Assembly (NCBI GenBank): GCA_963726255.1
Contig: CAVSBL010000002.1
Coordinates: 1,120,001 to 1,184,000, forward strand
DNA from: Candidatus Bathyarchaeota archaeon
GTDB taxonomy: Archaea; Thermoproteota; Bathyarchaeia; 40CM-2-53-6
Reading direction: 5' to 3'
Length of the DNA stretch: 64,000 bases
The number at the start of each line of letters is the position of its first letter. Position 1 is the stretch's first letter. The position numbers were made by a program, and so were the translations under genes. The notes beneath the pieces were generated by a model. That model was not told the DNA's origin and did no database searches. It saw only the letters and a program-made list of their open reading frames with translations. This document shows positions 6,135 through 8,350 of the stretch, piece by piece.

Positions 6135-7400
6135 TCAGGGCGGGAGCCCCCCGATCAGCGTCACATCTACGTTTTGCCCTCCCTCAATAGCTATAATCCC
6201 TTCATTGAGAGTGACGATTCCGTTCGCCCTAACCATGCTCATCAGAACTGAAGAACGTTGTAGTTTGAGCGGCTCGGCAACTAACCCCCGCCCATCACGC
6301 TTTACCATGACCCTCACAAAGGTCCTGTTACCGGGCGCCCCCGTGATTCTTTCACTCAAGAGCGCACTGACAGTTGGTTCGAACAATTCCTGAACGCCCA
6401 ACATCTTCGCGAGGACAGGACGTACGAAGGTTCGGAATGCGAAGAATGCGGAGACTGGAAACCCAGGCAGTGAAAATACGGCTTTGCCGTTCACCACTGC
6501 CAAGCCTGTTGGCATGGCAGGCCTCATGGCAACCCCATGTACCAACATACCCGGCTTGCCTAAGGTGTTGACACACTCAGGGACGAGATCCCTTTTGCCG
6601 ACCGAAGACCCTGCGCTTACAATGAGCGCATCGCATGTCTTCAATCCACTCCTCATAGCGTTCTTAATGCTGGATTCCAGATCCTTGACAATTCCCAGGT
6701 CAACGGCTCTCGCCCCCAATTCCTGAAGCATACCGGATATGATTGCCCTGTTGATGTCGATAACTTTGCCCGGGCTACGGCTACTGATCGAATCTACGAG
6801 CTCGTTACCAGTTGATATGACAGCTACGCGTGGCTCCCTAGCAACATACACTCTCGACAATGCTAGTACCTTCGATATGCCAATATCCTGCGGCCGGAGG
6901 CGCATCCCCTTCTTGAGCACAACCGTATGTGGTGTAACGTCCTCACCCTTCATCGCGATGCTCTGGCCGGGCGTAGTCGGGACGTGGACTGCGATTCTGC
7001 CTGCCGGAAGCTTGGTCGTTCGCTCAATCATCACGACGGCGTCTGCACCGGGGGGAATCACGCTCCCGGTTGCGACAGCAACGCTCTCTCCCGGCTCAAC
7101 CTGCAGTCTGGGTAAGGCGCCTATCCTGCTTTCCCCAACCACCCGAAGGATTGCGGGTTTGTCTTGAGAAGCATTCTTCACGTCTTCAACGCGGACAGCG
7201 TATCCGTCCATCACCGAGCGATCAACTGGTGGCAGGTACTGATTTGCAACGACGTCTTTTCCAAGGTATCGTCCCAAGGCCCGCTGAACAGCGACGGATT
7301 CGAGCTTGACAGTCGGCTCTCCGAGGGCAGCGAAAAGCATCTCAAGCGCGTCGTCAACCCTAGTTAGTTTTTGGAAACCTTCGGTGTGCAAATGACTCAT
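6135..7400 (-). CDS. moeA: Molybdopterin molybdotransferase MoeA
   Basis: SVMDGYAV, TGSVIPPGADAVVMIE, STGNEL, GSSVGKRD, LPGFPVS. Confidence 0.95.
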   Translation of the reverse strand: MSHLHTEGFQKLTRVDDALEMLFAALGEPTVKLESVAVQRALGRYLGKDVVANQYLPPVDRSVMDGYAVRVEDVKNASQDKPAILRVVGESRIGALPRLQVEPGESVAVATGSVIPPGADAVVMIERTTKLPAGRIAVHVPTTPGQSIAMKGEDVTPHTVVLKKGMRLRPQDIGISKVLALSRVYVAREPRVAVISTGNELVDSISSRSPGKVIDINRAIISGMLQELGARAVDLGIVKDLESSIKNAMRSGLKTCDALIVSAGSSVGKRDLVPECVNTLGKPGMLVHGVAMRPAMPTGLAVVNGKAVFSLPGFPVSAFFAFRTFVRPVLAKMLGVQELFEPTVSALLSERITGAPGNRTFVRVMVKRDGRGLVAEPLKLQRSSVLMSMVRANGIVTLNEGIIAIEGGQNVDVTLIGGLPP

Positions 7401-7472
7401 GGGATTAACACTAATCCGACGGGAAGATATTATGCGCGGCAGATATCTAACACACTCTGCCGGTGGCCGCCC

Positions 7473-7748
7473 ATGGCCGATTCGCTGACCACGACGATTA
7501 CAATCCTTGGGGCGCTCGTCGTACTAATTGGGCTAATCTTCTGGATCCGAAGAGTTCGACAAAAAGGAGACGGCGGGCCTTTCATCGAACTTGAGAAATT
7601 GGTCAAGTGCAGGTCCTGCGGTTCTCTGATACCGGAAGGTGTCCGCAAATGCGCTTTTTGTGGCGTCTGGCAACGCCAAGAGGATTCCGGAGAACAAATA
7701 AATGGCCCAAAGAGCAATGGCACGAACGCCGCCGAAATGGCACACTAG
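7473..7748 (+). CDS. Small membrane-anchored zinc-ribbon protein
   Basis: N-terminal hydrophobic helix then CRSC...CAFC; likely start ATG 7473. Confidence 0.7.
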   Translation: MADSLTTTITILGALVVLIGLIFWIRRVRQKGDGGPFIELEKLVKCRSCGSLIPEGVRKCAFCGVWQRQEDSGEQINGPKSNGTNAAEMAH

Positions 7749-7883
7749 CCGCCGTATGCGCATTCGCGTAGACGACAGCTCAGTGGTGGAGCAGCGGACC
7801 CTTCTCAGTAAGGGGCTGAAGCTGTTAAGCGGGCAGACACAGCTACCCGTTGGTCGCAGGTTCGAGCCCTGCCGGCGGCGCCA
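7748..7883 (+). tRNA. tRNA-Asn(GTT) with three introns (8/9: 7756-7776; 30/31: 7798-7820; 37/38: 7828-7844) and encoded CCA
   Basis: After removing the introns: GCCGCCG TA GCTC AGTGGTG GAGC A GCGGG CT GTT AA CCCGT TGGTC GCAGG TTCGAGC CCTGC CGGCGGC G CCA, a complete cloverleaf with G73 discriminator; each intron forms a BHB-type motif. Confidence 0.92.
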
Positions 7884-7933
7884 ATAAATCCTGCGATGAC
7901 CTTTTCTCGGCTAAAGGAGTTCCGTTCATTCAG

Positions 7934-8350
7934 ATGCGAATACGTGAATTTCAACTCAATGATTACGGCGATGTTGTGAACGTTTGGAATACAGCCGGGC
8001 TCATTCTCCGTCCAGGCGACGAATTTGAGGGAGTCAAGTTGAAGTTGCAAAGAGACCCTGACCTATTCTTGGTCGCCGAAGACGAAGATGAGATTGTGGG
8101 GGTCGTCATGGGAGCTTGGGATGGAAGGCGCGGCTGGATCAATCATCTTGCAGTGGTACCCAGTCATCAAAGACGTGGTATAGGCCAGGCGCTCATCGGG
8201 GAGGTTGAGAAACGCCTAATTGAGAAAGGGGCAAAGAAGGTTAACGCGCAGATCTACCGGTGGAACACAAAATCCTTTGATTTCTTCAAGTCAGTTGGTT
8301 ATGAGGTTCATTCCGACCTCGTAATGATAGGAAAGCACCTTAAGAAATAG
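7934..8350 (+). CDS. GNAT family N-acetyltransferase; start ATG 7934 because the longer ORF overlaps the tRNA
   Basis: DGRRGWINHLAV, HQRRGIG acetyl-CoA motif, N...FF...GY. Confidence 0.9.
   Translation: MRIREFQLNDYGDVVNVWNTAGLILRPGDEFEGVKLKLQRDPDLFLVAEDEDEIVGVVMGAWDGRRGWINHLAVVPSHQRRGIGQALIGEVEKRLIEKGAKKVNAQIYRWNTKSFDFFKSVGYEVHSDLVMIGKHLKK

Follow-up and report, generated by a model that had tools for sequence, protein, structure and literature searches.

Introns in archaeal tRNA genes have been described at a range of positions. A 2014 review (PMC4090602) names 30/31 and 37/38 among them, and its text mentions the sites 20/21, 22/23, 25/26, 29/30, 30/31, 45/46, 53/54, 56/57, 59/60, 'etc.', with position 3/4 presented as an extreme case. 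For the 3/4 introns of the Thermoproteales (Sugahara et al. 2008, as related in PMC4090602), the splicing motif must make use of acceptor-stem bases. In the split and permuted tRNA genes of Nanoarchaeum, Caldivirga and Thermofilum, transcribed flanks that are later discarded supply the pairing of the BHB motif, according to the passages concerned in PMC4090602 and PMC3218864.

The locus analyzed here carries three BHB introns, at positions 8/9, 30/31 and 37/38; the running text of PMC4090602, as distinct from its site figure, does not name the first of these. Our literature search, which covered papers outside their figures and supplements, found no paper on an 8/9 intron so named; since '8/9' cannot be searched as a term, this does not establish absence from print. 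The gene lies in a window of 64,000 nucleotides, by which we mean the whole stretch of DNA that was analyzed, from a soil/sediment Bathyarchaeia MAG assembled into 5 contigs (completeness 98.5%, contamination 9.3%). A neighbouring MoeA-like protein has its closest relatives in Candidatus Bathyarchaeia / Bathyarchaeota. An earlier, sequence-only reading of this DNA had framed its multiple introns by reference to the Thermoproteales, a frame that does not fit, the host being a Bathyarchaeia MAG outside that order.

Excision of all three inserts from positions 7748-7883 (+) of the window yields a 75-nt tRNA-Asn(GTT) cloverleaf including CCA, and ARAGORN, applied to the exons joined by script, called a tRNA-Asn(gtt) of 75 nt with a complete cloverleaf. 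On the unspliced stretch the same program called no tRNA, intron mode included, and the Rfam tRNA model gave a partial match to the unspliced gene, scoring 23.6 bits where the gathering score is 29, in agreement with the earlier prediction that tRNA scanners would miss or truncate the gene. The anticodon GTT sits in a 7-nt loop with U33, and the discriminator base is G73; the loop CTGTTAA and G73 are common to 14/14 intronless Bathyarchaeia Asn genes, 13 of which also share the acceptor strand GCCGCCG (the remaining gene, L063, has GCCGTCG). Furthermore, exons are near-invariant and intron loops variable among 19 same-genus loci. When the gene is aligned with five intronless orthologues in MAFFT, a 21-nt gap falls precisely at the T8/A9 junction, and the remaining insert forms one 40-nt gap, equal to the summed lengths of introns 2 and 3 (23+17). 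The motifs, the ARAGORN call on the spliced sequence and this alignment bear out what the sequence-only reading had proposed about the gene, the sites of its three introns and their BHB structure, and we regard the locus as almost certainly a real tRNA-Asn gene with three introns (Table 1). A covariance model (R1) was also tried as an intron locator and set aside, as it aligned part of the anticodon-stem-like intron 3 and returned a 69-nt insert in the D arm.

Table 1. Features of the tRNA-Asn locus, in coordinates of the window.
Feature	Coordinates	Strand	Basis
A/T-rich box AAATAAAT, putative archaeal TATA box	7696..7703	+	consensus and spacing only
Leader copy ('decoy') GCCGCCG, equal to tRNA positions 1-7	7728..7734	+	sequence, 43 Asn genes, folding
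Leader spacer, 13 nt; 3' part CACACTA	7735..7747	+	minimum-free-energy structure
Exon 1, tRNA positions 1-8 (GCCGCCGT)	7748..7755	+	in-silico splicing, MAFFT
Intron 1, 21 nt, position 8/9	7756..7776	+	BHB; covariation; MAFFT gap
Exon 2, positions 9-30, D arm and anticodon-stem 5' strand	7777..7797	+	in-silico splicing
Intron 2, 23 nt, position 30/31	7798..7820	+	strict hBHBh'; covariation
Exon 3, positions 31-37, carries anticodon GTT	7821..7827	+	in-silico splicing
Intron 3, 17 nt, canonical position 37/38	7828..7844	+	relaxed BHB
Exon 4, positions 38-73 and encoded CCA	7845..7883	+	in-silico splicing
3' acceptor strand CGGCGGC within exon 4	7873-7879	+	sequence, folding
Encoded CCA	7881-7883	+	sequence
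T tract, possible archaeal terminator	7902..7905	+ (3' of gene)	sequence only

The BHB motif of intron 1 is composed of an outer helix formed by G1-C11 and C2-G10 (2/2 pairs), a central helix CGCC/GACG with 3/4 pairs and one C.A mismatch, bulges GT^A and AC^A, and an inner stem TGCGC/GCGTA that includes one G.T pair (2/2 inner pairs scored). Intron 2 presents a perfect central helix CAGC/GCTG (4 pairs) with bulges GG^A and AA^G, flanked by the inner helix CCCTT/AAGGG and the outer helix AG/CT (2 inner and 2 outer pairs scored). Intron 3 has a perfect central helix, CTGT/ACAG, and weak flanking helices. Its outer helix is limited to 1 bp in the primary transcript (21/22 distinct sequences) because intron 2 splits the anticodon stem, so that intron 2 has to be excised before the motif is complete. 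Hence, the site and central helix that had been assigned to this intron stand, but the complete motif is absent before excision of intron 2. Within the genus, intron 3 is 17 nt long, 11 nt long or absent.

The inner helices of introns 1 and 2 covary, with three to four standard pair types at each of their pairs. Among 36 distinct 8/9 introns, the inner pair i3:j-7 is GC in 11, AT in 12, GT in 7, CG in 4 and a non-pair in 2, and the central pair C5:j-4 is C.A in 27/36 and C-G in 9/36; the inner helix of intron 2 behaves likewise across 41 distinct sequences. The exon-side letters of the outer and central helices are invariant and thus carry no information on covariation. The genome also encodes two EndA paralogues (188 and 187 aa), with genes at about 748,000 and 1,451,700 of G000:C2, that share 28% identity. 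Both contain an N-terminal and a C-terminal domain, with matches to PF02778 and PF01974, and the pair would be consistent with the broad-specificity (alpha-beta)2 heterotetramer type. An archaeal RNase P RNA is present as well (173.6 bits).

The sequence-only reading had also raised the question of a second tRNA-Asn in this genome, and DNA, covariance-model and exon searches of the genome found none. The unspliced gene, used as a DNA query, gave one match; a covariance model of intronless Asn genes recovered this locus at full length (44.6 bits) and no other genome match above 53.4 bits; exons 2 and 4 matched at full length at this locus only; and the Asn anticodon loop in its context occurred in 0/34 of the other tRNA-like loci of the genome. 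With tRNA-Asn being essential and no further copy found, all three introns need accurate removal.

Position 8/9, which had been described as not typical, proved to be a recurrent and not a singular site in this lineage. In the host genome, 8/9 introns occur in four tRNA genes (Asn, Cys and two class II genes read as Leu), and they are present in 43 orthologous Asn genes, drawn from related genomes that are not independent samples and recognized by the pattern GCCGCCGT, so that T8 after the proximal copy is fixed by the search. Our own BHB-plus-cloverleaf solver, the anticodons of which clash with those of ARAGORN for several genes, was used only for 8/9 sites that were read by eye. An intron at this position poses a folding problem. 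Its BHB uses tRNA bases 1-6 and 10-11 and is thus in competition with an acceptor stem of seven G-C pairs, with the result that the splice signal and a far stronger helix claim the same bases; the earlier deduction that the acceptor stem must be open while intron 1 is presented thus holds.

An element directly relevant to this conflict, overlooked by the reading that had raised it, lies in the leader: 13 nt upstream of the gene, the acceptor 5' strand is repeated without a mismatch. We consider this upstream copy, hereafter the decoy, a new element of the present analysis; our literature search, again outside figures and supplements and hence not establishing absence from print, found no paper on a leader copy of the acceptor strand. 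The decoy and the 8/9 intron co-occur, with two exceptions, Leu(GAG) (intron, no decoy) and L075 (decoy, no intron). Every one of the 43 Asn genes with an 8/9 intron has the copy, at 7/7 identity in 34 and 6/7 in 9, compared to 2/26 at 6/7 or better among Asn genes without that intron. In the latter group 24/26 score at most 5/7, L071 scores 6/7 and L075, which keeps the copy in the absence of the intron, scores 7/7; families f14 and f32 each include both states, with and without. In tRNA-Cys the repeated strand is that of the Cys gene itself, GCCGGGG; it recurs without a mismatch upstream of 27/27 genes that have an 8/9 intron and of 0/2 that lack the intron, and the leader of one Leu gene holds GCGGGG, again from its own acceptor strand. 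Because the Cys leader copies the Cys strand, the element tracks the acceptor sequence of each tRNA. In the host genome, the four 8/9 genes reach copy scores of 7/7, 7/7, 6/7 and 5/7, and all other anchored tRNA genes (23/23) score at most 5/7. The host gene without a decoy is Leu(GAG), with a perfect 8/9 BHB and a best copy of 5/7; its leader pairs with the D arm instead.

The position of the decoy relative to the putative promoter is also conserved. The A/T box starts 32 nt ahead of the leader copy at this locus, and the distance from box to copy start is 29-45 nt (median 34) across 39 Asn loci, matching the box-to-+1 distance of ordinary tRNA genes. We therefore predict the copy to be the 5' end of the transcript, on the grounds that the spacing from the promoter box alone would place +1 there; transcription would then start at 7728-7734, about 20 nt upstream of the gene. 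The spacer between copy and gene varies from 5 to 24 nt and has diverged in sequence among relatives, with the 7-mer kept.

In the predicted fold of this locus, the decoy pairs with 7873-7879 at P about 1. Folding with the leader gave P of at least 0.97 for decoy and 3' strand and at most 0.01 for the true acceptor in 38/38 loci, with the BHB outer helix at P of at least 0.5 in 26/38, whereas folding without the leader gave an acceptor P of at least 0.85 and a BHB outer helix P of 0.00 in 38/38; the Cys and both class II (Leu) 8/9-intron genes showed the same behaviour. The 3' part of the spacer, CACACTA, may in addition lengthen the outer helix of the intron 1 BHB through pairing with the D arm. 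As controls, a single A/T replacement looked clean, but the true acceptor also fell below P 0.5 in 41/100 shuffles of the whole leader and in 91/97 shuffles restricted to the decoy. Because shuffles often act alike, the folding effect is not specific to the letter order of the decoy, and we rejected folding as proof of the decoy and kept it as weak support. Nearest-neighbour energies favour the decoy by 5.3 kcal/mol before splicing and still by 3.0 kcal/mol with the three introns taken out in silico. These energies show no return to the true acceptor once splicing is complete, which leaves the required strand exchange unexplained by the model; the exchange would depend on tertiary contacts or on capture by RNase P.

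Taken together, these data suggest a mechanism in which transcription would start at the spare acceptor 5' strand and, in the precursor, this leader decoy would pair with the 3' acceptor strand. The true 5' strand would thereby stay in a local hairpin presenting intron 1, the outer helix of which the 3' end of the leader may extend. Intron 2 would be cleavable in the same precursor, and intron 3 would gain its complete motif only once intron 2 is gone, the archaeal splicing endonuclease excising all three introns at their BHB motifs. After ligation, the true strand would displace the decoy, and RNase P would trim the leader. The start of transcription, the pairing of the decoy in the cell, the sequence of steps and the exchange of strands are the inferred parts of this scheme. 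A single found tRNA-Asn with three BHB introns and a leader decoy is, in our judgment, the best and a reasonably probable explanation of the locus, and we put slightly above even the chance that the decoy ties up the 3' strand and thereby leaves the true 5' strand free for BHB formation.

The distribution of the copy bears on the possibility that it is a neutral scar that plays no part in splicing and was left behind when the intron was inserted, for instance through a tandem duplication of exon 1. In both L080 and L077, the copy is part of a longer duplication comprising exon 1 and the first intron bases, pointing to a duplication origin, and L075 retains a copy without an intron; the co-occurrence of copy and intron would, moreover, follow from common descent. 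A scar, however, would be expected to decay as fast as the spacer, and the 7-mer is exact in 34/43 intron-bearing Asn genes from at least 16 families with a spacer that varies between 5 and 24 nt. The same arrangement recurs in 27/27 tRNA-Cys genes, the copy keeps a fixed distance from the promoter box, and genes without the intron nearly always lack it (24/26 at 5/7 or less), all of which makes a neutral scar unlikely in our view.

The folding results, for their part, would equally suit a copy that pairs with the 3' strand for another purpose, either protection against exonucleases or a role towards CCA or quality-control enzymes while the acceptor stem is open. Such a purpose fits the same co-occurrence data too, and Leu(GAG), with its perfect 8/9 BHB and no decoy, indicates that the decoy is not strictly required. 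Against this, the predicted acceptor stem at P of at least 0.85 and outer helix at P 0.00 without the leader (38/38) imply that some device freeing the 5' strand is needed, and the decoy supplies one; protection and BHB presentation are, in any case, not exclusive. We likewise judge it improbable that another purpose accounts for the copy.

The location of the copy at the +1 position of the ordinary tRNA genes of this genome would also be expected if it were the 5' exon of a leaderless transcript, with the endonuclease cutting behind the copy and at the 3' site of intron 1, spacer, second copy and intron leaving as one piece, and no RNase P step. The copy would provide the 3' half of the BHB with the same outer and central helix letters, and in 4/39 loci it is followed by T, giving a normal U8. 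U8 is near-universal in tRNA, and a non-T follows the copy in the other 35/39 loci, including an A at this locus, which would leave the product without U8. Furthermore, 9/43 copies match at only 6/7, the inner helix at the 5' bulge covaries with the proximal and not the distal copy, two copies with the same letters cannot pair into a BHB, and an RNase P RNA is present, so that we consider a 5' exon distinctly improbable. A separate arrangement, in which a fourth intron would be bounded by the two repeats, was excluded on the grounds that identical strands cannot form a central helix.

A start-site element acting at the DNA level, as an initiator or protein-binding site and with no RNA pairing, would account for the fixed distance from the A/T box, yet the copy matches the acceptor strand of each gene (GCCGCCG in Asn, GCCGGGG in Cys, GCGGGG in one Leu gene) and is missing from the ordinary tRNA genes of the genome (23/23 at 5/7 or less), and we deem it very improbable.

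RNA data were sought in 24 listed runs. One run contained part of the stretch, as a single 381-nt unspliced contig without joints that stems from a relative of less than 90% likeness and is uninformative on splicing or expression; two other libraries labelled as metatranscriptomic (X21, RNA; X24, 'RNA? (probably DNA)') yielded nothing. That the locus is a decayed or unexpressed pseudogene, with a working tRNA-Asn elsewhere and perhaps in unassembled sequence, is barely credible: a missing gene is conceivable in an assembly of this contig number, completeness and contamination, and the RNA runs checked lend no support to expression, but the exons are invariant or nearly so in 43 intron-bearing orthologues, the stems covary, the promoter box and encoded CCA are kept, and a second Asn gene was not found by DNA, covariance-model or exon search.

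The leader copy, as a decoy for the acceptor strand, thus offers a simple and testable answer to the folding conflict of an 8/9 intron. If this is true, a leader sequence that is itself discarded can determine in which order archaeal pre-tRNAs are processed. More tentatively, with a probability that we place somewhat short of even, the leader copy may be a dedicated cis-acting folding helper, a placeholder for the acceptor strand without which introns located where the acceptor and D stems meet could not be presented to the splicing endonuclease; it would be gained and lost together with them, would require splicing to precede RNase P, and would recur across distant archaeal phyla. It would then represent a general, undescribed element of archaeal pre-tRNA architecture. 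In practical terms, standard scanners miss such genes, and annotations of Bathyarchaeia MAGs will therefore show tRNA-Asn, tRNA-Cys and others as missing; such tRNA genes could be recovered with an intron finder designed to seek a duplicated upstream acceptor strand.

Compared to the non-canonical and multiple BHB introns of Thermoproteales, Thaumarchaeota and Asgard archaea, the introns of this locus are likewise short (17-23 nt), of hBHBh' or relaxed form and within the limit of three per gene. A known system of another phylum, in which nearly all tRNA genes are interrupted, resembles it further in having many introns in the D-arm region that standard annotation misses; the word 'leader' is absent from the main text of the paper that describes this heavily interrupted set. 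The 3/4 introns of the Thermoproteales are similar to the 8/9 intron in that the acceptor stem cannot fold during splicing, but they differ in position, and the passages of PMC4090602 that treat them do not mention an acceptor-strand copy in the leader. The proposed mechanism has in common with split and permuted tRNA genes, as presented in the passages considered here, the use of a discarded flanking transcript to aid presentation of the BHB. In those genes, however, the flanks pair together and thereby build the motif, whereas the leader described here resembles one strand of the mature tRNA and would take its place opposite the complementary strand.

Joining the four exons by coordinates in a script yields 75 nt that ARAGORN calls as tRNA-Asn(gtt), with a 7-bp acceptor stem, four complete arms, G as the discriminator base and CCA encoded in the gene, and all three inserts show the expected archaeal bulge-helix-bulge (BHB) geometry. 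ARAGORN called no tRNA in the unspliced stretch, intron mode included, and none over the entire 64-kb window. Rfam at gathering thresholds gave no match across the window; in a permissive Rfam search the tRNA model covers positions 9-63 only, at 23.6 bits versus a gathering score of 29. The sequence-only reading had proposed a triple-intron tRNA-Asn(GTT) gene that standard scanners would probably miss or truncate, and both points are borne out by these results. The gene call and all three introns are secure.

Features of the tRNA-Asn locus and the other genes with 8/9 introns (bare coordinates are window positions; C2 is the contig of the window)
Feature	Coordinates	Strand	Description
A/T-rich box	7696-7703	+	putative promoter element
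Leader copy GCCGCCG	7728-7734	+	exact acceptor 5' strand, 13 nt upstream of tRNA +1
tRNA-Asn(GTT) gene	7748-7883	+	four exons, inserts of 21, 23 and 17 nt
Exons	7748-7755, 7777-7797, 7821-7827, 7845-7883	+	
Intron 1 (8/9)	7756-7776		BHB: outer G1-C11, C2-G10; central CGCC/GACG with one C.A mismatch; bulges GT^A, AC^A; inner stem 5 bp
Intron 2 (30/31)	7798-7820		hBHBh' motif, strict
Intron 3 (37/38)	7828-7844		central helix CTGT/ACAG perfect; flanks weak
tRNA-Cys(GCA)	C2:667339-667483 (locus L100 to 667495)	-	8/9 intron
Class II genes read as Leu (L101, L102)	C2:2253994-2254130; C2:1670790-1670957	+; -	8/9 introns

Without use of the motifs, a MAFFT alignment to five orthologues that lack introns places a 21-nt gap precisely at T8/A9 and leaves the remaining extra sequence as a single 40-nt gap, equal to 23 plus 17 nt. 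Alignment to a covariance model was discarded as an intron locator because it was misled into misplacing the introns by part of intron 3 that resembles the anticodon stem; this intron holds GCGGGCAG, which nearly repeats the 5' strand of the anticodon stem and the loop start (GCGGGCTG). Intron 2 splits the anticodon stem in the primary transcript, and the outer helix of intron 3 is therefore only 1 bp there (21 of 22 distinct sequences); judged from the sequence, the full motif of intron 3 would arise only once intron 2 is out. The same situation is set out for introns close together in the accessible text of the tRNAscan-SE 2.0 paper (PMC8450103).

Used as a query, the unspliced gene has a single match in its own genome. 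A covariance model built on 14 intronless Bathyarchaeia Asn genes finds the window locus full length at 44.6 bits, together with 23 other matches in the genome, all at or below 53.4 bits; the six that score above the window locus (45.4-53.4 bits) look like other tRNA kinds with fewer inserts. Exons 2 and 4 match full length only at this locus in a genome search, and the two occurrences of YTGTTR among 34 other tRNA-like loci are neither of them an anticodon loop. Hence DNA query, covariance model and exon search found no second tRNA-Asn in the assembled genome, a possibility that the earlier reading had raised.

Of 61 related genomes, the window's own counted, 51 give a match to the unspliced query, among them 18 of the 22 other genomes of the genus. 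The 19 same-genus loci have near-invariant exons and all carry introns 1 and 2, with variable loops. Intron 3 may be missing, and otherwise measures 17 or 11 nt; the 11-nt form, with an alternative 3' site, occurs in five relatives (L005, L007, L008, L011 and L014). The 8/9 intron of the Asn gene also occurs elsewhere in the order, in further genera and families, and in several more families of the class. Of 36 distinct sequences of the 8/9 intron, 27 have C.A at the central pair C5:j-4 and 9 have C-G; at G4:j-3, 34 have G-C and 2 have G.T. Inner-helix pairs of these introns show compensatory changes (i3:j-7 is GC in 11, AT in 12, GT in 7, CG in 4 and a non-pair in 2), and both intron bases of the 3' bulge differ freely from one intron to another. 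In intron 2, the inner helix likewise covaries among 41 distinct sequences.

Reading the genome's tRNA loci by anchoring on the T arm and CCA revealed 8/9 introns in four genes: Asn, Cys(GCA) and two of class II. The site, earlier thought untypical, is thus recurrent in the host genome. The tRNA-Cys gene has three introns: 33 nt at 8/9, 19 nt at 37/38 and 20 nt within the variable loop. Its 8/9 BHB has a conserved G.A mismatch in the central helix, and an exact leader copy of its own acceptor strand lies 5 nt upstream. Of the two class II genes read as Leu, one has a 6/7 leader copy and the other, with anticodon GAG, has none; the leader of Leu(GAG) can pair with about 10 D-arm bases to form a long BHB outer helix.

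Almost all tRNA genes of this 2.42-Mb genome (5 contigs, 51% G+C) are interrupted. Genome-wide, ARAGORN without intron mode finds clean genes only for Arg-CCG (C2:662893-662970) and Asp-GTC (C2:1442025-1442100), and 17 loci exceed the Rfam tRNA threshold; we found no report of comparable tRNA-intron richness for Bathyarchaeia in the searchable literature. A Leu-like locus (C2:1289644-1289789, minus strand) has GCGGGGGT just before a D arm that contains roughly 26 inserted nt, and its ARAGORN-called 3' end does not fit the GCGGGGGT acceptor strand; it may hold more introns near the 3' end or be decayed. For the neighbouring MoeA-like protein, the nearest relatives are encoded on contigs whose titles read Candidatus Bathyarchaeia or Bathyarchaeota and which stem from MAGs of peat, soil and sediment; the frame is therefore Bathyarchaeia rather than the Thermoproteales invoked before. 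The genome encodes an archaeal RNase P RNA (173.6 bits) and two divergent EndA paralogues (188 and 187 aa, 28% identity), each with N- and C-terminal domains, a pair that fits the broad-specificity heterotetramer type; the subunit roles assigned to them are presumptive.

The leader copy is present in all 30 loci of the order (7 letters in 28, 6 letters in 2). In a presence/absence count that did not require the copy, it lies upstream of 43/43 Asn genes with the 8/9 intron (7/7 identity in 34, 6/7 in 9), whereas 22 of 24 Asn genes without that intron score at most 5/7, the others being L071 (6/7) and L075 (7/7); two further intronless Asn genes, L066 and L068, have no upstream copy by eye. Both Asn states, with and without intron and copy, occur in families f14 and f32. 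For tRNA-Cys, GCCGGGG recurs exactly upstream in 27/27 genes with the 8/9 intron, versus a single-copy acceptor strand in 2/2 without it (one further Cys locus was unparsable). One genome (G048) has a Cys gene with neither intron nor copy, yet an Asn gene with both, so the leader copy belongs to the gene and not the genome. In the window's own genome, copy scores are 7/7, 7/7, 6/7 and 5/7 for the four genes with an 8/9 intron and at most 5/7 for the 23 others.

The upstream copy is best explained as a leader decoy, which would occupy the 3' acceptor strand of the precursor and thereby leave the true 5' strand in the hairpin presenting intron 1. Across 39 loci the start of the A/T-rich box precedes the copy by 29-45 nt (median 34); box-to-+1 spacing is 26-46 nt in ordinary tRNA genes of the genome and 30-49 nt in intronless Asn genes. 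The copy thus stands relative to the promoter as a mature 5' end usually does, and this spacing suggests that the transcript probably begins with it. The putative promoter and leader are overlapped by a putative 125-aa ORF (7371-7748, plus strand) whose last base is the first tRNA base; its product would have a hydrophobic segment and a CxxC...CxxC pattern. A 166-aa ORF (7850-8350, plus strand), presumably acetyltransferase-like, has its listed TTG start inside the tRNA; its true start is probably the ATG beyond the tRNA 3' end (MRIREF from residue 29).

Folded without the leader, 38/38 loci give the acceptor stem a P of at least 0.85, and in none does the intron 1 BHB form its outer helix. 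With the leader, the copy pairs with the 3' strand at P of 0.97 or higher and the true acceptor drops to 0.01 or lower; the outer helix reaches P of at least 0.5 in 26/38. The Cys and both Leu genes show the same flip; in Leu(GAG), without a copy, the folded leader pairs with the D arm and extends the outer helix. Shuffle controls weaken this modelled support, as the true acceptor fell below P 0.5 also in 41/100 whole-leader and 91/97 7-mer-only shuffles. Furthermore, the decoy form is favoured by 5.3 kcal/mol before and 3.0 kcal/mol after in-silico removal of all introns, so the energies do not explain the return to the true acceptor needed by RNase P. The Asn stretch is contained wholly or partly in 20 of 24 listed sequencing runs, only one of the 20 being on record as RNA; this run yields one unspliced contig, from a relative, with no joints, and is uninformative on splicing or expression.

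A neutral duplication scar is a weaker explanation of the copy. Such an origin suits L080 (G084), where the copy lies within a 12-letter duplication of exon 1 and the first intron bases, and L077 (G079), where it likewise extends beyond exon 1, but the 7-mer is retained although the adjoining spacer diverges freely. The L075 Asn gene (G113) has an 8-letter upstream copy of exon 1 without the 8/9 intron, and there are hints that decoys may arise through duplication and outlast the intron. Also weaker than the leader decoy are an alternative 5' exon, protection of the 3' end and a DNA-level start-site element.

BHB introns at non-canonical sites, or several in one gene, are a familiar class. In their accessible text, a 2014 review names 30/31 and 37/38 among the sites, with 3/4 as the extreme case (PMC4090602), and acceptor-stem regions are mentioned as intron sites in a 2025 paper (PMC12397907). 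We found no description of a leader copy of the acceptor strand in the literature, where '8/9' is unsearchable and figures, supplements and key older papers lie outside the search. The main text of a 2026 preprint on Asgard genes places the few cases in the acceptor stem and at junctions under 'other' and never uses the word 'leader'.
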